Assembly: GCA_041736805.1 (NCBI GenBank)
Contig: JBGSSW010000016.1
Coordinates: 66,526 to 130,525 of the forward strand
Origin: Minisyncoccia bacterium
GTDB taxonomy: Bacteria; Patescibacteriota; Minisyncoccia; Phycocordibacterales; UBA918
DNA length: 64,000 bases
Reading direction: 5' to 3'
Numbering within the stretch: position 1 is the first letter of the stretch; each line of letters starts with the position of its first letter. The notes beneath the pieces are model-generated. The model had not been told where the DNA came from. It searched no databases and saw only the letters and a program-made list of their open reading frames with translations. A program made the translations under genes and the position numbers. This document shows positions 4,599 to 62,818 of the stretch, one piece after another.

Positions 4599-7283
4599 TT
4601 AACTCAAAATTGAGATGAGCCATTCGTAAGAAGCTTCACCTTGCTTTCTTTCAACATTATTCATTACACGCCCGTGCTTGACTGCATTTCTGTATTCCTT
4701 GAGTTGCAAGAAGTGCTTCTCGACTTCACCCCTAGAGCCAAAGACGCTCTCAAAAATATCCCAGTTTACAGATATAGTTTCTTGGTAATCCATTATATCG
4801 CAATAGTCAAAACGGTTTCTTGCACTAATAGGCTGACTTCTTTCTGCTGGGTGACGTTTAAATCTTTGCTCTAACTTTTGTTCAACACGTTGCTTTACAC
4901 CATTTGAAACTTTAGCGTCCCAATAATCAGCACCGAAAGCTTTACTCAAATGGGAATCAATAAAGTCTCTCAAATTTAATTCTAATTCATCAACTGCTGT
5001 TTCAGGTGCAGTTTCAAGAACTTCTTCGGTGTCAGGACTCAAGCCAATTTTGCTTCTAATTACCCTAATGATACTTTTTTCTCTTTCTTCGAGAAACCCA
5101 TCGAAGTTATCACTTTGAAGTAGAGCAAGTCCAACCGCACTAATTGTGTGCGACTCCAGTACTTCTGTAAGCGCCTGTTCATTGGATGAGTATTTGTCAG
5201 TTAAAAACTCATTTATGTAGACAGAAGGTACTTTATCCCTTTTTCTCATATTAGTTTCTTTTGACAACCAGGTCATATTAAGAACTGAATTAATATACGG
5301 ATGTTGCGAAAAACCAGCACTGTTAGACTTTGGGAAAATATGGTCTTTGTCATTACTTCTAGCCATCTCTAAAGCGTGTCCTGTTTCAAAATCTACAGCT
5401 CCAGCTAAAGCAATTAATGACATCACACCTTTGTATATTGCATTAGAATGGTTGTTTACCTCTTTTAAATCAAGATTTGAAAGGTCATTTCTGGCTTGTG
5501 TCACTACTTTAGGAATATTTTCTTCACCATTGAACCAATTCATAACCTCCTTATAGTCAGAAGTCATTTGAGTCTCTGCAGACGATGAGTAAGCGTTAGT
5601 AAAAATTGCTGACCAATACCACTGATCAATCTTTGACTGGCACAATAATCTGTCTGCTCTTGTGGCCGCTTCCATATTCAAAGCTGTGAGTACAGGAATC
5701 ATTGGAGAAAACGGCACCTCCTTATCATTTAATACACCGTAACCTGTACGTAAGTTTTCGAGCAAGTTAAAGGTTGATTCGAGATTTTCAACCACTTGAT
5801 TCCAGAGCGTGATAAATTCTTCAGCTGAAGATAGGGACAAGTTCTCGTATAAAGAAAGTAAATCTTTCTTCTTTGCTGAACTTGAGGGATGATGGATTAA
5901 TGAAAGGCACTGAAAAATGAACATCTTGGTTTTTTCAGACTTACAGTAGTTATTGATTCCTTCATAGTTCTCAAGTACCGATTCCCAGAGATTTCTCAAG
6001 TTGATGCCATTCCTAAGCAGTTTTGCGATTAGCAAATCAAATGTGCCAAGTGGTTTACCTTCAGTGTTAATTTTTTCAAAAATAACTGATACTTGTGCTA
6101 AGTCCATACTGCTAGGCAGAACAACAAACGGTATCTGAAAGCCTTGCCACATATGCCTGACTCTGGATTCAATCAATCTTTTTAGGTCTCTTAATTTCTC
6201 ATACGGTAAGTCAGCTTCAGTTGTATGTAAGTAGTCTTCAAGTCCGTCTAGCCATTCAAATGAATTTGAGAGCTTGTTAATTGGAAATAACAAACTTTCA
6301 TAGGTTTCAATGTTTGACAACTCTCTATCCTTCACAGTAATAATCCTCTCACTATTTTGTTCAAGAATAAAATTCTTAAAATCAATATAGTAATATGAAT
6401 TTTTAGAAGTACCCTTAAGAGGAAAATCGGGTGACTTAATCGCATAGTAAAGTGCGGTACAACGCTGTTGCCCATCCAGTATTATAAAATCAGTTCGACT
6501 CAATGAATTTGACGAACCTTGAATCGCAATCAACTCTAAAGGGGCTTGCTCATCTGATTCCCACAGTAAAAAGGCTCCGACATAGTAATCATTAAAGATT
6601 GATTCCAGAAGTGACCGCACGCTTTCTCTATTCCAATCAAAATATCTTTGGAAATTAGGAATCGCCCATCTGGTATCTAAATTTTCTATAATTCGTGCGA
6701 CATCAATTCTGTCCGGGCTACTTAAAGCGTGGGGAGAAAAACTGACAGTCGATAAATCTACTGATGTTACAAAATGCTTCAATCTTTCAGTTTCGAGTAC
6801 AGTGTCTACATCATAGTTTTCTGATGTAACAATTCTTTCAAAATCAGCAGAATTAATTTTCCTTATGCCACCCTGTAGATACGGCCCCCAAGAATAGGGA
6901 TTTTTGATAAATGACAAGTTGTTTAGTAGCGGTTTTATTGGCTTTGGTCTATCAAAAATTAATATGTCCGCTAAGTCCAGTCTGAACATATCCTCACTAC
7001 TAAAATAATTGTGAGAAGTATCACTTTCTCTATAAGCGGATGATGTGGCAGTAGCTGTACCAACAAAATGCTGATTTTCACCACCTAAGTAAAAAACAAT
7101 CTTGTCTCCAGGGACAATCTTAGCTCTTGCGGCTGTTCTAGGGTGTAAACCCCAAACACTCTTCGACATTAAATCAGTATAGATTTCAGATGCAGAAATC
7201 CTGTTGCCTGTACTGTCCTGATGCGACGTTATTATTGATATATAGTTACTCATAATGATGATTACTTTGAGTAAGCATATCAT
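4599..7283 (-). CDS. GmrSD-like type IV restriction endonuclease fusion: N-terminal EVE/PUA-like domain, DUF262 (DGQQR), DUF1524 (His-Me finger, DHIFP) and a C-terminal HEPN-like Rx4H motif. The probable true start is the Met at 7253.
   Basis: VWGLHPRTAARAKIVPGDKIVFYLGG...FVGTATATSSAY matches the EVE pattern (W.G....ARN....pGD...FY). IILDGQQRCTALYYAI is the DUF262 signature. DKDHIFPKS...N...L is DUF1524 HNH-like. The terminal LKEYRNAVKHGR is a HEPN Rx4-6H motif. Confidence 0.7.
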   Translation of the reverse strand: MICLLKVIIIMSNYISIITSHQDSTGNRISASEIYTDLMSKSVWGLHPRTAARAKIVPGDKIVFYLGGENQHFVGTATATSSAYRESDTSHNYFSSEDMFRLDLADILIFDRPKPIKPLLNNLSFIKNPYSWGPYLQGGIRKINSADFERIVTSENYDVDTVLETERLKHFVTSVDLSTVSFSPHALSSPDRIDVARIIENLDTRWAIPNFQRYFDWNRESVRSLLESIFNDYYVGAFLLWESDEQAPLELIAIQGSSNSLSRTDFIILDGQQRCTALYYAIKSPDFPLKGTSKNSYYYIDFKNFILEQNSERIITVKDRELSNIETYESLLFPINKLSNSFEWLDGLEDYLHTTEADLPYEKLRDLKRLIESRVRHMWQGFQIPFVVLPSSMDLAQVSVIFEKINTEGKPLGTFDLLIAKLLRNGINLRNLWESVLENYEGINNYCKSEKTKMFIFQCLSLIHHPSSSAKKKDLLSLYENLSLSSAEEFITLWNQVVENLESTFNLLENLRTGYGVLNDKEVPFSPMIPVLTALNMEAATRADRLLCQSKIDQWYWSAIFTNAYSSSAETQMTSDYKEVMNWFNGEENIPKVVTQARNDLSNLDLKEVNNHSNAIYKGVMSLIALAGAVDFETGHALEMARSNDKDHIFPKSNSAGFSQHPYINSVLNMTWLSKETNMRKRDKVPSVYINEFLTDKYSSNEQALTEVLESHTISAVGLALLQSDNFDGFLEEREKSIIRVIRSKIGLSPDTEEVLETAPETAVDELELNLRDFIDSHLSKAFGADYWDAKVSNGVKQRVEQKLEQRFKRHPAERSQPISARNRFDYCDIMDYQETISVNWDIFESVFGSRGEVEKHFLQLKEYRNAVKHGRVMNNVERKQGEASYEWLISILS

Positions 7284-7321
7284 TATAATTCATTATTTTC
7301 AGCTAAAATGATATAGTTTAA

Positions 7322-7939
7322 ATGACATTTATTTATATGGTTAAATACATAATTTTTCGATACCTAACTAACGCAGATTTTTTTAATATCTATAAACAAC
7401 CTGGTACGGAGTTAGGTGGTGGTGGTCAGGCTTATATTGATTTTCCTGCACAAGATGTATCTCTAGAGAAATGGGGTAAGTTTTTTGAAGACGCAAATAG
7501 TATTGTTTGTGACTCTGGAGAACAAGGCCCTATCTGGTATGTGCCACTAAATAGTATCGGTGTACAAGGTTCTCAAGAGGTAAAGATTTACCAGAGAAGA
7601 GCACAAAGTATATGCATTGCTTCACAACGAATTACTAGCACTAGAGAAAATCGAGTTAAGTCGTGGCATCCAGAAAATGGCTTTCCAGAACCTGCCGACC
7701 CATTAGAACGTAATCAACTTCCTCAGAATCTTCTTGTTTATCTACTTAGAACTAGCAACGATGAATTTTGGGCTGGATGGTCATTAAATCAAGTTCCTGC
7801 GAGAGACAATAATGCGATACAGCTAATTGCTGAAATGCACAATGAGGCTATGTCAGAAGGTCATTCTGGTTTTATTGAACCAACTGACACCCTACTGTTT
7901 GATTCAACTGATAAGGAAAAACCCTTCTTTACATCTTAA
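7322..7939 (+). CDS. Hypothetical protein (205 aa); candidate restriction endonuclease partner of the adjacent methyltransferases
   Basis: It lies between the type IV gene and the two methyltransferases, converging on them with an 11-bp overlap. It contains a possible D...EVK PD-(D/E)xK-like arrangement (CDSGEQG...SQEVKIY). The assignment rests mainly on genomic context. Confidence 0.4.
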   Translation: MTFIYMVKYIIFRYLTNADFFNIYKQPGTELGGGGQAYIDFPAQDVSLEKWGKFFEDANSIVCDSGEQGPIWYVPLNSIGVQGSQEVKIYQRRAQSICIASQRITSTRENRVKSWHPENGFPEPADPLERNQLPQNLLVYLLRTSNDEFWAGWSLNQVPARDNNAIQLIAEMHNEAMSEGHSGFIEPTDTLLFDSTDKEKPFFTS

Positions 7940-9005
7940 CCTCAATCAAATACTCAGTTAAGTTTTTACCAAGCTTGCTAGCGTTACTTTTAAATCGCTT
8001 ATGACTTATTTCCTCTAATGAAACTTCTCCGTATTTTTTTAATCCTACGAGTAACTCCTTTATCGGAATTAAACCATCTTCACTATAACTAATTAAAAAG
8101 CTATTGCATTTGACACCAGTCAAAATTTTATCAAAGGAGTCCCAAATTTTTGTTTTGGTGCAAAAATTTGAATATTGGTCTCGCCAAGGTCTTAGTCCAC
8201 TCACACCAATGGCTTGAGGGTCATCCTCCCGTGCCAACGTTTCTAGAATATGGTAGTTAGCCGCATATTGTCTTTTCATATATGGAGGGTCAATGTAACA
8301 AACACTGCACTGAATTGTATTTGCTAAATCTTCAGCATATCCCTTATAAACATTGTGCTTTGATAATTTTGAATCAGCAACAAAATTTGTTGCTATTGAC
8401 GGCTTTAAATACAGAACATCATTTGCTCGCCCAGTCAGCTTGGAAAGATAGTGACCGTAAGTTCCTGAAATATTTGCTACGTCATTTACCGCCAAGATTA
8501 AATCATTCAATAGTAGTGAATGCTCGATGTCATTAATTACTTTTTCTTGGTAAGCGTTTCTTATCCAATTTCTAATTGCATCAATTTTAGAAGCATTGTG
8601 TGGAGAAAAGTAGTTACGTGGCCCATCACCAGAGCTAGGCTTTCCTTCAATACAAAACTCTTTATAAAAATACTTTTTTTGTGGCTTAAGATTGTTTAGA
8701 TAAAGTAAAACATCTACATAGCCGTTTTCATTGTCATTTTTATTCAGCTTTTGATTAATAAATTTATTGGCTTTTTTAAAAGTAGGAGTCTTATCAATTA
8801 AAAGCACTACACGAGCGTGATGGTATGAATATGTCATAACATCTGTCGCAATTACAGAAAAACCCCGCTCTTTTAAAGCTTTAGAAACTGTAGCTGTACC
8901 ACACATCAAATCACAAACCACGTCTCCTTCCTTTGTAATTGATTCAATTTTGTCTACAATTTTGTCTACAATTTTACTTTTAGAACCAATATACCTATGT
9001 CCCAT
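7929..9005 (-). CDS. DNA methyltransferase (N6-adenine or N4-cytosine) with motif I FxGxG-like near the N-terminus and DPPY motif IV near the C-terminus (alpha-class order)
   Basis: VVCDLMCGTATVS (AdoMet-binding motif) ... CYIDPPYMKRQY (DPPY catalytic motif). Confidence 0.8.
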   Translation of the reverse strand: MGHRYIGSKSKIVDKIVDKIESITKEGDVVCDLMCGTATVSKALKERGFSVIATDVMTYSYHHARVVLLIDKTPTFKKANKFINQKLNKNDNENGYVDVLLYLNNLKPQKKYFYKEFCIEGKPSSGDGPRNYFSPHNASKIDAIRNWIRNAYQEKVINDIEHSLLLNDLILAVNDVANISGTYGHYLSKLTGRANDVLYLKPSIATNFVADSKLSKHNVYKGYAEDLANTIQCSVCYIDPPYMKRQYAANYHILETLAREDDPQAIGVSGLRPWRDQYSNFCTKTKIWDSFDKILTGVKCNSFLISYSEDGLIPIKELLVGLKKYGEVSLEEISHKRFKSNASKLGKNLTEYLIEVKM

Positions 9006-9006
9006 T

Positions 9007-10746
9007 TTAAAATATGTCGTTAACCGAAACGTTAGTCAGTGCTTTAATAGGAAGCAGGCTATCAACTTTATTAAAAGTTTCGTATATAACCCCGTAATCC
9101 TTTTTGGTTAGACCAAACAAAGTTGCCACTAGACGCTCTATTTTAGCATCAATGGACTTTGGTACAACCTTATTGTTTTCAAGGTATGGCTTTAAAGTTG
9201 AGACAATTGCCTTTGAAATCTTTCCAAAAGATGCAGATTTTATATCTGGGAATGGTAAGTTAAGAATTTGACCTTGTGTTAAATAAGGATGAGAGCGCCA
9301 TTCAGTTTCACCGTATTTTTTGAGTAAAAAATAATACATCGCTCTTGAGTTAATTACACTCAACACTAACTCAATTGGAGCCGTCTCACTTGCCGGACTT
9401 TCTTTAGGTCTAAACATATACACAACCTGATTTGTGAGCGATTGTGTGTAATCAATAGATGCTGTAATTCCAACGCCAGTTTTGCGGACAATAATTTTTG
9501 GTTCGTAGTAAACACTAATATCCTTGTAGTTTATTCCTTTATTATCGACAGAAATCCAGTACTCAGAAGATATTGAGTAGCGTCGAATACTCTCACCTAC
9601 TAGGAGGGGCTTTGATCCTTTAAATTTTTTCTTACTAACAATATTTTGAACTTCGACTTTAGATAAGTCTGAATTTTTGGCGCAATGGTTACACTTAGGG
9701 CGCAGACTGTTTGGGTATGGGTTCCACTGACTACAGTAGTCACACTTATATACCTTCCCTGATTTAGACAATTCTACCCCTCTTGATGAAGATACGAAGT
9801 CACCAATAACTTTCTTACTAGAAGACAGCTTTTGTATTACCTTTAATTCATTGTCCTTTGTGTCTATATCGAAAAGGTATAGACCAGTTTCAGAAAAACG
9901 CTTTTGAAAAACTTTGTGTGACAACTTAGAGTTTGCATCCTCGTATGATAATTCATTCTTGAGAATTAGCTTTCTAGTTTCAAGATTCAACCGCATACAC
10001 TCAACTTCATTCTCAGCTGAAGGTACAGTGTTTTTAAATATTATTATCGTACATCCTCTACTAACGTCTTTAAATATTTTTTCACCAAGTCGTGCTATAT
10101 ATTTAATTTCTGTATTTTCAGTAAGTAATTTCCTAAGAACCTTTTTTTCGTGACTAAAAATTGAATCTGGAATTATGAAGGCACAATATCCACCTTTACG
10201 AACAATTCTTAGTGATAGCTCAATAAATAAATCAGATGAGTCAAACTGCCCTTTATTTAAAGTGTAGTCGCTGTGATTTAATTCCTTAACATAATGACTC
10301 ATATCCGCTCCCCAGGGAGGGTTGGCAACCAAAACATCAAAACCATCTTGTGCATTAAAATGACTCTGAAGTGACTTGATATCAAATATACTCAGTCTAC
10401 TTTCATAAGGAAATAAGGCATTTATTTTCAGAGTGTTTTTAGCAGAAATTAACTTAGAAGTGGTTTCCACTGCGTATTTATCAATATCTGTACCATACAA
10501 ATCAAAATGATTTGAAAGTTGATTTCGAGACAAGTATCTATTTACCGAGTGAAGTAATTCACCCTCTCCACAAGCGGGGTCAATTATTTTGAGACTATCG
10601 ACTTGTCTGTAAGCGCCTCTAGAAATATCTTCAGATAAAAAGTGTAGTACTTTACTGACCAGAAAATCCGCAAGGGGTTTTGGTGTATATACAATACCTA
10701 AATCACTTTTATACTGTGTTTTTTTATTTTTAGTGACTAAAACCAT
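9007..10746 (-). CDS. N6-adenine DNA methyltransferase, gamma-class (Eco57I/TaqI-like, NPPW motif) with a C-terminal target-recognition region containing a Cys4 zinc ribbon
   Basis: IIDPACGEGELL (motif I) ... LVANPPWGADMSHY (motif IV NPPW) ... CDYCSQW...CNHCAKN. Confidence 0.8.
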   Translation of the reverse strand: MVLVTKNKKTQYKSDLGIVYTPKPLADFLVSKVLHFLSEDISRGAYRQVDSLKIIDPACGEGELLHSVNRYLSRNQLSNHFDLYGTDIDKYAVETTSKLISAKNTLKINALFPYESRLSIFDIKSLQSHFNAQDGFDVLVANPPWGADMSHYVKELNHSDYTLNKGQFDSSDLFIELSLRIVRKGGYCAFIIPDSIFSHEKKVLRKLLTENTEIKYIARLGEKIFKDVSRGCTIIIFKNTVPSAENEVECMRLNLETRKLILKNELSYEDANSKLSHKVFQKRFSETGLYLFDIDTKDNELKVIQKLSSSKKVIGDFVSSSRGVELSKSGKVYKCDYCSQWNPYPNSLRPKCNHCAKNSDLSKVEVQNIVSKKKFKGSKPLLVGESIRRYSISSEYWISVDNKGINYKDISVYYEPKIIVRKTGVGITASIDYTQSLTNQVVYMFRPKESPASETAPIELVLSVINSRAMYYFLLKKYGETEWRSHPYLTQGQILNLPFPDIKSASFGKISKAIVSTLKPYLENNKVVPKSIDAKIERLVATLFGLTKKDYGVIYETFNKVDSLLPIKALTNVSVNDIF

Positions 10747-59029: not shown

Positions 59030-59114
59030 CTGAATTTTGACCTGCAGACTTATTTATTTCATTATGCAATAAATAGTCTATACAAATAAAAATTGAGGAG
59101 TATTATAAATATTA

Positions 59115-59573
59115 ATGGAAGTTATAGACATTACAAAACCAGCCATTACTATCCACGAAAATACTACTTTCGAAGATACAATTAAAACTATGGTTGAAAA
59201 GCAGACAAATTCACTTTTAGTGGTTAATGACCAAGGTTTGTTGGTTGGTGAAATTGGTATGTCTGATGTGTTAGATGCTATTGTTCCAGAATACATGGAC
59301 GGCGATAGTATTGCTGCCCACTTTGCTAGCACAGATATGTTCACCGATGCTGTAGCAGACGCCAGACTGACTTTAGTAAAAGATTTCATGTCACTAAATA
59401 TAAGTCCCATTGAGACTACAGATAGTCTTATGGCCGTAGCGGCCTTAGCCATAGCCAACAACCGCACCCATATTCCGGTTGTAGATAACGAAGGCAAGCC
59501 AGTTGGTGTTATATCAAGGAGAGGAGTAAAACACATTATTGCCCACGCTCTAAATATCGCTGACAGCGAATAA
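59115..59573 (+). CDS. CBS-domain pair protein
   Basis: Two CBS repeats (TMVEKQTNSLLVVNDQGLLVGEI... and IANNRTHIPVVDNEGKPVGVISRRGV). Confidence 0.7.
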   Translation: MEVIDITKPAITIHENTTFEDTIKTMVEKQTNSLLVVNDQGLLVGEIGMSDVLDAIVPEYMDGDSIAAHFASTDMFTDAVADARLTLVKDFMSLNISPIETTDSLMAVAALAIANNRTHIPVVDNEGKPVGVISRRGVKHIIAHALNIADSE

Positions 59574-59640: not shown

Positions 59641-61008
59641 ATGGAAACCGTCGGAATCATTTCATTAGTAATCTTTGTTATTACTTTCATTTTTATCTTA
59701 ACTGAGAGAATTCACCGTACAGTTATCGGTCTGCTGGGAGCTCTAACTATGTTACTAGCTGGAATGTACTTTGATTTTTACCACCCTAACAACGCTCTTG
59801 AAGCAATTGATTTTAATACCCTTGGACTTCTGTTCGGTATGATGATTCTGGTAAGTATGTTAGAAAAAACCGGTGTTTTTCAATACTTAGGCATTTGGAC
59901 TGCTAAAAAAACCAAAGGCGATCCCTGGAAGTTAATGGTTGCCCTTTCCGCTATCACAGCAGTATTATCGATGATTTTAGATAATGTGACCACAATCATC
60001 ATGATTGTTCCTATCACCATCATTATCGCTGATATGCTCAAGATTAATCCGATTCCAATTTTGATGGCCGAAGCCTTACTTTCTAATGTTGGTGGTACGG
60101 CCACCCTGATTGGTGATCCGCCAAATATCATGATTGGTACCGCAGCTGGTTTTACTTTCAATGACTTTTTAGCACACGCTCTACCAGTAGTATTGGTTAC
60201 TTGGCTAGTTACTCTTATCTTGTTCCGTTTTATTTTTCGTCGCGACCTCAAAAAAGAACCAAAAAATGTAGAGAAGTTACTTCAAATGAACGAAAGAGAA
60301 GCTATCACTGACGTCGTGATGCTAAAAAAACTACTTGGCGTTTTTGGACTTGTGGTAATCATGTTCTTTACACACTCATTACTCCATCTTGAGGCGTCAA
60401 TGGTCGCTCTAATTGGAGCGGCCTTAGCTTTAGTTATTATTGCTCCTCATACCGACCCACAACACATTATAGAGAAATGCGAACTATCTGTTCTACTTTT
60501 CTTTGGTTCACTTTTTGTAATTGTCGGTGGCCTTGAATTTTCTGGTGTTCTTGAATCCGGAGCCAACCTACTTACCTCAGGTGCTCAAGACAATCTTCTC
60601 CTAACTGCTATTGTCCTACTTTGGGCCAGCGCTTTTCTTTCAGCCATTATCGATAATATTCCTTTTACAGTAGCCATGATTCCTATTATCGCTTACCTAG
60701 GAACTCAGGGTATCCCAGTTGATCTTTTATGGTGGGCTCTAGTCTTCGGGGTTGGGTTTGGTGGTAATGGTTCTCCTATTGGTTCAACGGCTGGGGTAAT
60801 TGTAATTGCCAAATCAGAAAAGACTGATACTCCAATCAAGTTTATTGACTGGATGAGACAAGGAGTTCCAACCATGATTTCAGGATTAATTGTTGCCACT
60901 ATTGCTCTAACCGCTCTTAGTCCTTGGTTTGGTAATAGCAGCTCAACTGAACCAGATAACTTAGAAATTGAAATTAATGAGCTGGAGATGCAAAAAGAGG
61001 CTAAATAG
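59641..61008 (+). CDS. Anion/ion permease of the ArsB/NhaD (IT superfamily) type
   Basis: 455 aa, about 12 TM helices with internal duplication and LDNVTTIIMIVPIT / IDNIPFTVAMIPII repeat motifs. Confidence 0.65.
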   Translation: METVGIISLVIFVITFIFILTERIHRTVIGLLGALTMLLAGMYFDFYHPNNALEAIDFNTLGLLFGMMILVSMLEKTGVFQYLGIWTAKKTKGDPWKLMVALSAITAVLSMILDNVTTIIMIVPITIIIADMLKINPIPILMAEALLSNVGGTATLIGDPPNIMIGTAAGFTFNDFLAHALPVVLVTWLVTLILFRFIFRRDLKKEPKNVEKLLQMNEREAITDVVMLKKLLGVFGLVVIMFFTHSLLHLEASMVALIGAALALVIIAPHTDPQHIIEKCELSVLLFFGSLFVIVGGLEFSGVLESGANLLTSGAQDNLLLTAIVLLWASAFLSAIIDNIPFTVAMIPIIAYLGTQGIPVDLLWWALVFGVGFGGNGSPIGSTAGVIVIAKSEKTDTPIKFIDWMRQGVPTMISGLIVATIALTALSPWFGNSSSTEPDNLEIEINELEMQKEAK

Positions 61009-61105
61009 TCTTTTTTAAACAAGCATTTTCATTGAAATAAAACCCCCCACAATTACTTGTGCGGGGTTTAATATAAAGTCGCACATTTAGTAAGACTTGA
61101 GACGT

Positions 61106-61237
61106 CTTGCCCTATAAATAAGGAGTAGCGGTAGCTACGACTATATTTATAGTGTGCTTGTAGACATTGGATTCGACCTCCGGGAGAGAATCCAATGTAG
61201 AAAGTCATATGATTAATATGACTTTAGTCTACGAGCC
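61106..61237. repeat. Copy A of a tandemly duplicated ~130-nt hairpin-rich element (candidate structured RNA)
   Basis: The first 85 nt or so are identical to copy B. Internal hairpins are ctataaata...tatttatag, acattggattc...gaatccaatgt and gtcatatgattaatatgac. Confidence 0.6.
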
Positions 61238-61345
61238 CAATAAACAAGGAATGACATAGTCATGACTATGTTTATGGAGTGCAAGACACTAGAGAAAAAG
61301 CCCCTCACAGGGCTTTTTCTCTAACTCAAGTCTTATTTTAGACGC

Positions 61346-61475
61346 CTTGCCCTATAAATAAGGAGTAGCGGTAGCTACGACTATATTTATAGTGTGCTTG
61401 TAGACATTGGATTCGACCCCAGAGGGAGAATCTATTGTAGAAAATCTTACTTAGTAAGATTTTAGTCTACGAGCC
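61346..61475. repeat. Copy B of the tandem element; its last ~25 nt overlap the 3' end of rpoD
   Basis: Same 5' ~85 nt as copy A. The divergent 3' hairpin atcttacttagtaagat replaces gtcatatgattaatatgac with full base pairing preserved. Confidence 0.6.
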
Positions 61476-62818
61476 TTCTCATGCTGTCGTATCTTCTCGA
61501 GTGCCTTCGCTTCAATTTGCCGAATACGTTCACGGGTTACACCGAATTCTTTACCGACTTCTTCAAGAGTATGATAAGTACCATCGAGTAGGCCGTGTCG
61601 CATTTCCAAAATTTTACGTTCCTTTTCAGATAGAGTGTCGAGAATTTCAGTAATTTGATCAGTTAAAATACTATGCGCAACCTCTTGATCTGGGGAGACA
61701 ATTTTATCATCAGCAATAAAGTCTGACAGTCGTGACCGATCGTCATCATCTCCAACTGGAAGTTCGAGCGAAATAGTATCCTGACTAATTTTTTCAATTT
61801 GATAAACTTTTTCTACCTCAACCCCCATTTCAGTAGCAATTTCCTCAGGCATAGGATCTCTTCCCAGGTCTTGAGAAAGACGACGAGAAACTTGTTTATA
61901 TTTAGCCATAGTTTCAACCATGTGAACAGGAATACGGATAGTCCGTGACTGATCAGCTAAAGCTCGAGTGATAGCTTGTCTAATCCACCAAGTTGCATAG
62001 GTAGAAAATTTAAAACCTTTAGTGAAGTCAAACTTATCAACAGCCTTAAAAAGTCCTAAATTCCCCTCTTGAATCAAGTCAAGTAAAGTAAGGTCTGGAG
62101 AACGACCTACATACTTCTTGGCAATTGATACCACTAGACGTAAGTTAGCTCTAGCTAATAAGTTTCTAGCCTCCTCATCACCATCGACAATTCTTTTGGC
62201 CAAGACCCTTTCTTCTTGTGCATTCAAAAGTGGATACTGGCCGATTTCACGAAGGTACATTTGAATTGAATCAAAACCACTATCACTTCGCTTAAAAGCA
62301 TTTTTCTGGGCAATAATATCAATGCTAGCGTCGTCACCTAACATCCCCCCACTTTGGAGTACGTCTATTCCTGCAATTGAAAACCGCTCATAGAGAACAT
62401 CAAGAAACTCAATGTCTTTTTCTATTTCTGGAAATGAGCGTAGCATTTCATCATATGTAACATAGCCTCGTTCTCGTCCCAGCTTCATCAACTCAGCGGC
62501 TTTTAATTCTAGAATTTTTTCACTCTTAGTTAAGGCTACTTTTTTTACCTTAGCAACTTTTTTTACTGATTTTTTTACTTCCTTCTTAACTACTACTTTA
62601 GGTTTAGCCTTCGCCTTTTTAGCGACGGTTTTGACAACTTTCTTAGTATTCTTCTTAACTACTTTCTTAGCCACCTTCTTGCTAGGCTTTTTTACGACTT
62701 TTTTTACTACTGTTTTAGATTTAACCTTCGCTTTTTTAGCGATTGGTTTTTTAGCTTTTTTAGTGACGGTTTTGACCGCTTTTTTTACGACTTTTTTTGT
62801 GGCCTTTTTGGTAGCCAT
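61451..62818 (-). CDS. rpoD: RNA polymerase primary sigma factor (sigma-70 family) with a ~95-aa lysine-rich repetitive N-terminal extension
   Basis: Region 2-4 hallmarks: [55 protein letters not shown] and the C-terminal [27 protein letters not shown]. The dnaG-rpoD gene order supports the call. Confidence 0.9.

Follow-up and report, generated by a model that had tools for sequence, protein, structure and literature searches.

What are the repeated, hairpin-rich elements that follow rpoD, the primary sigma-70 factor gene, in a Minisyncoccia bacterium, and how did they come to lie there? The locus belongs to a 64,000-nt stretch of contig JBGSSW010000016.1 (assembly GCA_041736805.1), called here, at its full length, the window. 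A sequence-only reading of positions 61009-61475 had described a tandem pair of ~130-nt elements whose compensatory changes pointed to selection on RNA or cruciform structure. The region is a polymorphic, polar stack of complete rpoD gene ends exchanged between strains. The unit adjacent to rpoD supplies the working tail of the gene (its last codons), the outer tails are former working tails, and the units are mosaic and common to lineages with far more diverged rpoD DNA. We hold with moderate confidence that recombination built this stack out of interchangeable gene ends.

An array of rpoD ends in the window

Read on the minus strand, which is the strand of rpoD, the array (61111-61474) consists of three tandem hairpin-rich units in the order B-C-A, and the sequence runs from rpoD through units B, C and A to an oldest tail, a terminator and a convergent CitMHS transporter gene (Table 1). 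Units A and B are the two copies described before, and a repeat finder located them where they had been reported (61097-61209 versus 61337-61449, 91% identity; 61213-61237 versus 61451-61475, 88% identity). They are not a tandem pair, however: the array holds three units plus a displaced tail, and the presumed spacer is a third, partly decayed unit (C) that is scored at 72 bits by a covariance model built from units of other genomes. Both copies, and also the sequence after copy A, encode ARRLKSY-stop, the tail of rpoD; together with the damaged tail of unit C the window has four tail copies. Copy B had been seen to overlap the last codons of rpoD, and it does cover the last 8 codons of the open reading frame (ORF), the opening 24 nt of unit B and the closing 24 nt of the gene being the same letters. 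The oldest tail differs from the coding tail at 7 of 24 nt, and every change is synonymous. Only rpoD, among the 44 ORFs of the window, has tail repeats or a stop-codon hairpin, and nothing like its tail array was found at the other conserved genes in this check. The model had no hit in the 64-kb window outside the array region; a weak match (60966-61103, 22.6 bits) overlaps the area of the closing terminator.

A unit is ~125 nt long (the ~120-nt class; most of 29 model hits span 124-128 nt, range 103-129) and joins the last seven rpoD codons and the stop to sequence complementary to those codons. Each opens with its own copy of the codons A-R-R-L-K-S-Y-stop. The A-R-R codons pair with a segment ~65 nt downstream (helix P1), and in hp1 the 10-13 nt beyond the stop fold back on the L-K-S-Y codons, so that the stop codon lies in the hairpin loop. 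A third branch, hp2, lies between the P1 arms and forms a three-way junction with P1 and hp1. After a 4-nt linker (ACAC, ATAA and similar) follows a separate hairpin, hp3. Its outer stem is A/T-rich and leads through an internal loop, either side of which ends in TC, to an inner stem of 5 bp capped by a loop of 3-4 nt. Hairpin hp2 occurs in two types: the X type combines a TC/TC internal loop with a CTCCC...GGTCGAA top and lacks terminator design; in the Y type the GC stem is paired throughout and flanked by an A-run and a T-run, as bidirectional terminators are designed. A simple terminator scan marked 61045-61066 and the inner stem plus T-rich arm of hp3, the latter on both strands; it skips the Y-type hp2, in which the GC stem between the two runs is evident by eye, because the A-run and the T-run pair with each other.

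Other details of the sequence-only reading can be placed on this anatomy. The nested hairpins ctataaata/tatttatag and gtagc/gctac are present (inverted repeats, folding), as are the one G-U and the one mismatch on the plus strand in the middle stem of copy B. The identical run of the two copies was recovered at a length of 73 nt (61106-61178 = 61346-61418) instead of ~85 nt. Their terminal hairpins do combine different sequences with the same fold, but the change is driven by coding and is no showcase of RNA structure: at the third positions of the K-S-Y codons there are three synonymous changes, and for each of them the opposite arm has changed to match. The 18-bp palindrome between the copies is real, lies 2 nt away from the coordinates first given and is part of hp3 of unit C, and the terminator-like hairpin noticed beside it (inverted repeat, 61290-61323) is hp2 of the same unit. 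The flanks described as reverse complements of each other are so (inverted repeat, 61091-61101 and 61325-61335): taagacttgag represents the L-K-S-Y codons of the oldest tail, and the other flank is the one arm of hp1 that survives in unit C. The unit C tail matches the oldest tail except for one base and a deletion of ~11 nt; this deletion left the orphan hp1 arm TAAGACTTGAG and thereby explains the flanks.

Distribution among related lineages

Judging by its RpoD relatives, the window comes from a CPR (candidate phyla radiation) bacterium of the Paceibacteria, Nomurabacteria or Kaiserbacteria type. A set of 198 rpoD loci (L001-L198) was collected from genomes, metagenomes and exact-protein look-ups, and flanks of 1.5-6 kb were searched. 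Seventeen units aligned by MAFFT (alignment A1) gave a covariance model (R1), the E-values of which, from a short calibration, are rough. Below E = 1e-9 the model returned 29 hits, which represent 28 distinct units in 18 lineages of Paceibacteria-like CPR bacteria, including the window, and the element is therefore not confined to one genome. Every significant hit starts at the rpoD tail or follows another unit, on the rpoD strand (1.46 Mb of related loci), in agreement with the proposed placement 3′ of rpoD. No significant unit was found elsewhere in the flanks of ~160 related loci or in the other 63 kb of the window.

Arrays hold 0-4 tandem units. The RpoD of all close relatives ends in RRLKSY-stop or a near variant; most lineages have zero units and a plain terminator directly after the tail, and the species reached via proteins P0030, P0069 and P0078 are without arrays. 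Variant forms, in which a longer piece of rpoD (K-I-R-Q-H-E-K plus the tail) is duplicated, occur in L027, L041, L103 and L129. A more distant lineage with the tail AKRLRSY-stop (L077, 1871-1957) has this tail, then 39 nt in which the A-K-R codons have a complement, and then another tail copy that differs synonymously; this minimal version could represent the same process at an early stage or of independent origin. The rpoD DNA nearest to that of the window among the collected loci is only ~82% identical, and none is from the same species. At L081 (5604-5702) the assembly of a metagenome-assembled genome (MAG) gives way, within the array, to a stretch of N; stacks of similar units evidently resist assembly, and copy numbers from short-read MAGs may be underestimates.

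A second, unrelated structure lies directly after rpoD in L002, L006, L007, L012, L030, L045, L047 (7063-7210), L101, L116, L117 and L131; inspection by eye added L016 and L038, as well as the sequence after the displaced tails of L125 and L129. In this structure ~145-180 nt form a rod-like hairpin that is topped by CACCGTAC-N4-5-GTACGG, uses its distal arm to pair with the tail codons of rpoD, and has no match in Rfam. It folds ~10 kcal/mol better on the strand opposite rpoD, where G.U pairs are also more frequent (72/634 versus 30/580 pairs), which suggests an RNA from the antisense strand.

Folding and covariation

Both window copies fold beyond shuffled sequences (z = -9.1 and -7.7 on the plus strand; -7.2 and -5.9 on the minus strand), and the fold of the unit is a real, well-supported conserved structure absent from Rfam. 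In A1, 94.2% of cells are paired, compared with 35-45% when partners are slid by 1-3 columns; 32 of 45 pairs show double changes, and double-change cells number 177 versus 55 ± 5.5 in shuffles. Alignment A2, with 28 units, has 95.2% of cells paired versus ~42% with slid partners, double changes at 34 of 45 pairs, and 305 double-change cells versus 93 in shuffles; its sequences are related and were fitted to the model, and the slid-partner control and the independently made A1 are therefore the safer evidence. Mean column identity of the units is 69%, much of it from the tail codons. The conserved and strongly covarying fold proposed from two copies therefore holds in 28 distinct units from 18 lineages.

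The companion claim, that the covariation reflects selection on a single RNA strand, is not indicated. A functional single RNA strand should tolerate G.U and not A.C, yet G.T (26) and A.C (25) are equally frequent among 1239 pair cells (1153 Watson-Crick, 35 other), each no commoner than other mismatches. Mean folding energy is likewise equal on the two strands (-52.4 versus -53.7 kcal/mol). In first-position Y-type units (L090, L091, L080, L089 and L125) P1 is perfect or nearly so, and its arms flank the terminator-like hairpin; if this hp2 terminates transcription, the arms on its opposite sides would occur in no single transcript, which would argue against P1 as an RNA helix in Y-type units. 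Two readings fit these data: the structure acts as DNA (a folded single strand or cruciform), or the hairpins have to fold in transcripts of both strands, for instance for bidirectional termination. A mutational bias, in which template switching perfects quasi-palindromes, could contribute to the pairing.

Array dynamics and tail history

An identical RpoD (P0017) is encoded on contigs with zero units (L086), one unit (L089) and two units (L082, L083, L085 and L088). L089 uses as its coding tail what is tail 2 in L082, and the extra unit is therefore the rpoD-adjacent one. Over the last ~170 nt of rpoD, upstream of -21, L089 and L086 share their differences from L082, and from there on they diverge, which places the junction at the first tail codon. 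Between -168 and -30 of rpoD, L082 and L089 show 11 synonymous differences, a tract implying that the L082 unit arrived with at least 170 nt of rpoD DNA, by homologous exchange.

Units are also pieced together from, and shared with, other arrays. L198_u1 and L091_u3 are 92% identical, with the last 75 nt identical, at array positions 1 and 3 of loci with rpoD ends 85% identical. L198_u2 consists of the first 104 nt of L091_u1 joined to the hp3 end of L091_u2, and in L081_u2 the tail is foreign, the junction resembles that of L080_u3 and the hp3 is the same, letter for letter, as in the neighbouring L081_u1. In the window, the junction of unit B is ~91% identical to that of L141_u1, with rpoD ends 73% identical. 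The 73-nt identity of units A and B and the identical L081 hp3s show that duplication or gene conversion within an array does occur. That homologous or unequal recombination is at work at the rpoD end is certain from the flanking tract of single-nucleotide polymorphisms, the chimeric units and the segments that are identical. Crossover inside the tail or the hp1 loop was rejected as a general rule, the anti-tail arms matching the upstream and not the downstream tail; L081_u2 shows that it can occur.

Decay has a direction, model scores dropping distally in L091 (122, 104, 102 and 43 bits), L080 (117, 117, 103 and 45) and L082 (124, 119 and 32). Tails are typically spaced 125-128 nt apart, with a few longer gaps that hold no cargo genes, and most junctions lie exactly at the first tail codon. 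In 19 arrays with two to four tail copies each, with tails accepted at no more than 2 amino-acid changes, displaced and coding tails differ at 156 nt, 140 of them in synonymous codon pairs (random expectation 26%). These mostly synonymous differences indicate that the tails diverged while coding, in different lineages or alleles, and were later brought together, with slight decay since. A transposon target-site duplication was rejected: the tails on either side of a unit can differ at as many as 8 of 24 nt, always synonymously, and so were not identical at insertion.

Proposed mechanism

Recombination between co-occurring strains would put an incoming package of tail plus structure between the rpoD body and the resident tail. 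In this unequal crossing-over, pairing would rely on the highly conserved body of rpoD at one end and on repeats of the tail or unit at the other, and the old end, pushed downstream, would decay or be deleted. Each unit may act as a gene end, the hairpin cluster that begins at the stop codon terminating or insulating transcription in both directions and protecting the 3′ end; for a role in both directions, either strand would have to keep strict Watson-Crick pairs. Most economically, the cluster would end rpoD transcription, stop read-in from the neighbour, which is often convergent, and shelter the stop codon; the data suit a DNA-level role of the junction just as well. Hairpin clusters that follow stop codons have been described (PMC8355165). 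The units resemble them and bidirectional terminators in the design of the Y-type hp2, in an hp3 that is terminator-like on both strands, and in a position directly after a stop codon, often between convergent genes; folding on both strands would also give Watson-Crick-only pairs. Unlike the units, terminators do not pair with the last eight codons of a gene, contain no codon copies and are not exchanged as arrayed 125-nt units.

A number of observations speak against this mechanism. The regularity of the junctions suits a site-specific process better, with a few lying elsewhere (21 nt further upstream in L027, L103 and L129). No clean empty/filled pair with identical flanks was present among the loci, which leaves the insertion junction unproven, and 24-nt tails at 70-85% identity are poor substrates for homologous recombination. 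A generic recombination by-product is insufficient alone, the other conserved window genes showing nothing similar. The acceptance limit of the tail census is a bias; among 12 distal units defined by the model alone, 7 keep ARRLKSY-stop intact and 5 are damaged. As for gene-end function, the X-type hp2 is not a terminator, P1 of Y-type units spans the terminator-like hairpin, and the conserved TC/TC loops, the GGTCGAA motif and the ACAC/ATAA linker are not accounted for. A dedicated structure-specific recombinase would better explain the sharp junctions, the restriction to one gene, the strict Watson-Crick pairing and the TC/TC loops.

Alternative explanations

One alternative, which we regard as unlikely, is that the units are mobile DNA cassettes, the folded single strand (three-way junction plus hp3) being the substrate of a recombinase encoded elsewhere. 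Insertion would occur at the junction of the K and A codons of rpoD, and the replacement tail would keep the essential gene intact, by analogy with integron attC cassettes at attI or Xer-dependent elements at dif. Such cassettes would suit the Watson-Crick-only pairing, alike on both strands with structure kept and sequence not, the retention of P1 across the terminator-like hairpin in Y-type units, the growth of arrays on the rpoD side, the boundaries at the first tail codon, the occurrence of one unit at different array positions in different genomes and the exclusiveness to one gene; the conserved unpaired TC/TC loops could be protein contacts. Against them, neither the 64-kb window nor the called neighbours of five other arrays (L080, L081, L082, L196 and L198) yielded an integrase, transposase, HUH enzyme or reverse transcriptase: window ORFs of 150 amino acids or more contain no recombinase domain, and the neighbours are rpoC, dnaG, DabA, a Na/H exchanger, NUDIX and a UvrD-type helicase. 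No unit was found outside rpoD ends, in viral contigs, or in plasmids or phages. Flanking rpoD polymorphisms travel with a unit and chimeric units reflect ordinary homologous exchange, and some junctions are displaced by 21 nt. A more specific version, equally tentative, is a protein-less, structure-defined DNA cassette that homes to the last eight rpoD codons via structure-specific single-strand recombination (for example, in natural transformation) and carries a recoded tail. Loss of a cassette with a recoded replacement tail would damage rpoD; the whole would amount to an integron-like or selfish 'gene-end cassette' system of CPR bacteria.

The comparison with integrons can be drawn in detail. 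Like integron cassettes and attC sites (including attC clusters without integrase), the units are recombination-prone, conserved in fold and of a size in the ~60-140 nt range, and lie head to tail in one orientation; newcomers stand beside a fixed entry point, and array content varies between close strains. As in attC sites, an imperfect palindrome is kept in structure rather than sequence, in same-orientation arrays of up to 4. Unlike attC sites, none of the 29 units has the cores R'' (RYYYAAC) and R' (GTTRRRY) on either strand, strand-specific extrahelical bases are lacking and the loops are symmetric (TC/TC). The units are also without an ORF, the window yielded no integron integrase, entry is inside an essential gene and a replacement tail is carried. 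Dispersed mobile repeats offer a poorer match. Repetitive extragenic palindromes and bacterial interspersed mosaic elements (REP/BIME), enterobacterial repetitive intergenic consensus (ERIC) sequences and miniature inverted-repeat transposable elements (MITEs) are, like the units, short, hairpin-forming, non-coding and located at gene ends, but they are dispersed in many copies with conserved sequence or terminal inverted repeats, whereas the units stand only behind rpoD. No copies of the MITE/REP/BIME type were dispersed elsewhere in the 64-kb window or the flanks of ~160 related loci, and the best match between the 5′ end of a unit and the reverse complement of its 3′ end averages 5.2 of 14 nt, leaving no terminal inverted repeats. 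The sequence-only reading had allowed that the element might prove to be a recognised MITE or terminal-repeat element; Rfam, terminal-repeat and blastn checks identified it as neither, nor as an Rfam family.

It is doubtful, too, that the units are primarily structured RNA, that is, a 3′ untranslated region (UTR) element of rpoD mRNA or a cis-antisense RNA controlling the stability, termination or translation termination of sigma-70, with distal units as young relics. The strong, conserved and covarying fold would suit this role, as would the constant position of the stop codon in a hairpin loop and the expected transcription through X-type units. Read as antisense, the TC/TC loops turn into tandem G.A pairs, and the folding of X-type units is ~9 kcal/mol better on that strand; the second, unrelated hairpin at the same place, with its excess of G.U pairs, favours antisense RNA. 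The balance of G.T and A.C mismatches, the equal mean folding energy of the two strands and the straddling of a terminator-like hairpin by P1 in Y-type units all speak against it, as does the lack of an Rfam match: Rfam 15 at gathering thresholds over the whole window found nothing at the array, and at E<=10 over 60950-61550 it gave sub-threshold matches only, driven by terminator hairpins. Nor was a promoter-like site found on either strand of 60900-61600. By itself, an RNA role leaves the tail copies and arrays unexplained; it is DNA-cassette recombination, rather than the simple 3′-UTR motif first envisaged, that the array with its tail copies, polymorphic copy number and mosaic units points to. 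Two narrower RNA candidates were rejected: an independent antisense gene with its own promoter, for want of a sigma-70-like promoter in that interval, and a tRNA, tmRNA or tRNA-like element, suggested by the motif GGTCGAATCC, with ARAGORN finding 0 genes in the window.

A third alternative, already disfavoured and in our view very improbable, is that larger integrative elements (phage, island or plasmid) have repeatedly entered at the rpoD 3′ end and been lost again, the arrays being their scars, with accretion of att sites. Integrative elements duplicate the 3′ ends of tRNA and protein genes, a duplicated target-gene end being the classic signature of their insertion, and att sites accrete in tandem. 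The likeness lies in the direct repeat of the rpoD 3′ end (four tails in the window), in tails that differ synonymously, as expected of element-borne copies, and in the way a slightly different foreign gene end replaces the native one and leaves it downstream, successive events giving a tandem. The difference is that only a constant, structured segment of 100 nt lies between rpoD tails. Size and architecture are constant, no unit encloses cargo or an integrase remnant, and cargo was absent between the tails of all 19 arrays. A phage or plasmid origin was rejected: relatives of this RpoD are encoded on no viral contig, blastn searches of plasmid and phage sequences were empty, no viral, phage or plasmid sequence carried a unit, and 7 chance hits of a viral pattern scan were not recognised by the model.

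Systems that vary gene ends were considered as well. In rhs/cdiA orphan C-terminal modules, an incoming end displaces the old gene end. As there, the working rpoD end is on the main gene and older ends lie downstream, each preceded by short homology to the main gene, in a recombination-driven arrangement; but rhs/cdiA modules are different toxin tips with immunity proteins, of obvious advantage, and the rpoD peptide is always ARRLKSY with a non-coding payload of ~100 nt. All tails encode ARRLKSY-stop and the units are without an ORF, an analogous arrangement that gives no membership among Rhs/CDI-type alternative tips. A diversity-generating retroelement was rejected: the window has no reverse transcriptase domain, tail changes between A and B are A/G, T/A and C/T at third positions, and the repeat is mostly non-coding. 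A CRISPR-like array was rejected in the absence of its defining features. By analogy, then, the system operates like integrons, rhs/cdiA and att duplication, yet it lacks the defining features of each, and no description of such rpoD-end arrays was found in the literature searched.

A purely local origin, in which the rpoD end was duplicated in tandem together with its terminator, with neither strain exchange nor function, would fit the 73 identical nt of units A and B and the identical hp3s of L081_u1 and L081_u2, but it is highly unlikely, given that neighbouring units usually differ greatly in sequence, that in-place drift of a non-coding copy would not give tail differences of up to 8 of 24 nt that are all synonymous, and that near-identical unit parts occur in lineages with rpoD DNA only 73-85% identical.

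Features of the locus and the window

Upstream of the arrays the dnaG-rpoD order is constant, and in many loci a gene for a UvrD-plus-PD-(D/E)XK (AddA-like) helicase-nuclease lies a little further on. The genes after rpoD vary by lineage (CitMHS transporter, Na/H exchanger, CBS protein, VTT/DedA-like, DabA, NUDIX and IF-2B), and the rpoD end therefore marks the border of a variable segment. RpoD itself begins with a lysine-rich, low-complexity extension with KKxxKK repeats before region 1 (residues 1-~95; 62530-62818, minus strand); relatives align only from about residue 70-100 on, which indicates that this extension varies between lineages. Elsewhere in the window, the sole Rfam hit is a LOOT RNA (RF03000; 3592-3716, plus strand; 73.3 bits, gathering 46.4) between two small ORFs without a Pfam match. 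A probable defence/restriction island occupies 4599-10746 on the minus strand. Two ORFs of 152 amino acids overlap almost completely (59078-59536, minus strand; 59115-59573, plus strand); only the plus-strand ORF matches a family (CBS domain pair), and the minus-strand ORF is probably spurious.

Table 1 Features of the rpoD end, its array and the probable defence island in the window
Feature	Position	Strand	Evidence or detail
rpoD, primary sigma-70 factor, 455 amino acids	61451..62818	-	ORF list, translation, homologs with Sigma70 r1-r4 Pfam domains
Unit B (earlier copy B), rpoD-proximal	61351..61474	-	Covariance model 108.9 bits, E 1.7e-21
Unit B coding tail	61451-61474	-	GCT CGT AGA CTA AAA TCT TAC TAA
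Unit B P1	61465-61474 with 61396-61405		
Unit B hp1	61454-61463 with 61441-61450		Stop codon in loop
Unit B hp2	61410-61432		X type, loop CTCCC..GGTCGAA
Unit B hp3	61352-61392		
Unit C (earlier 'spacer')	61237..61350	-	Covariance model 71.9 bits, E 1.6e-13; fold; inverted repeats
Unit C decayed tail			GCA AGG CGT CTA AAA TAA, reads ARRLK-stop
Unit C P1	61344-61350 with 61281-61287		
Unit C hp2	61289-61324		Y type, GC stem between A-run and T-run
Unit C hp3	61237-61277		Encloses 18-bp palindrome 61254-61271
Unit A (earlier copy A)	61111..61236	-	Covariance model 110.4 bits; translations; identity run
Unit A non-coding tail copy	61213-61236		GCT CGT AGA CTA AAG TCA TAT TAA, still reads ARRLKSY-stop
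Unit A P1	61227-61236 with 61156-61165		
Unit A hp1	61216-61225 with 61201-61210		
Unit A hp2	61166-61196		X type
Unit A hp3	61112-61152		
Oldest displaced rpoD tail	61087..61110	-	GCA AGA CGT CTC AAG TCT TAC TAA, ARRLKSY-stop
Intrinsic terminator-like hairpin closing the array	61032..61077		Core stem 61045-61066 plus minus-strand T-run; inverted repeat, terminator scan
CitMHS-family transporter gene, convergent, distal array boundary	59641..61008	+	Pfam PF03600, E 7.6e-89
GmrSD-type endonuclease with EVE domain	4599-7283	-	
D12-class adenine methyltransferase	7929-9005	-	
Eco57I/TaqI-like methylase	9007-10746	-	

Implications

The gene rpoD is essential and among the most conserved in bacteria, and its end is a fast-changing site at which cassettes are swapped, stacked and deleted. 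Recombination-driven swapping of the end of an essential gene is apparently undescribed; that a genuinely new recombination system lies behind it we think improbable. If the favoured explanation is true, there may be a new route, by homologous or structure-specific recombination, that attaches non-coding DNA to an essential gene, and the units would be a natural case of synonymous coding change and hairpin pairing co-evolving base by base. Read from metagenomes, the arrays would also mark, at strain resolution, where uncultivated CPR strains have recently exchanged DNA.

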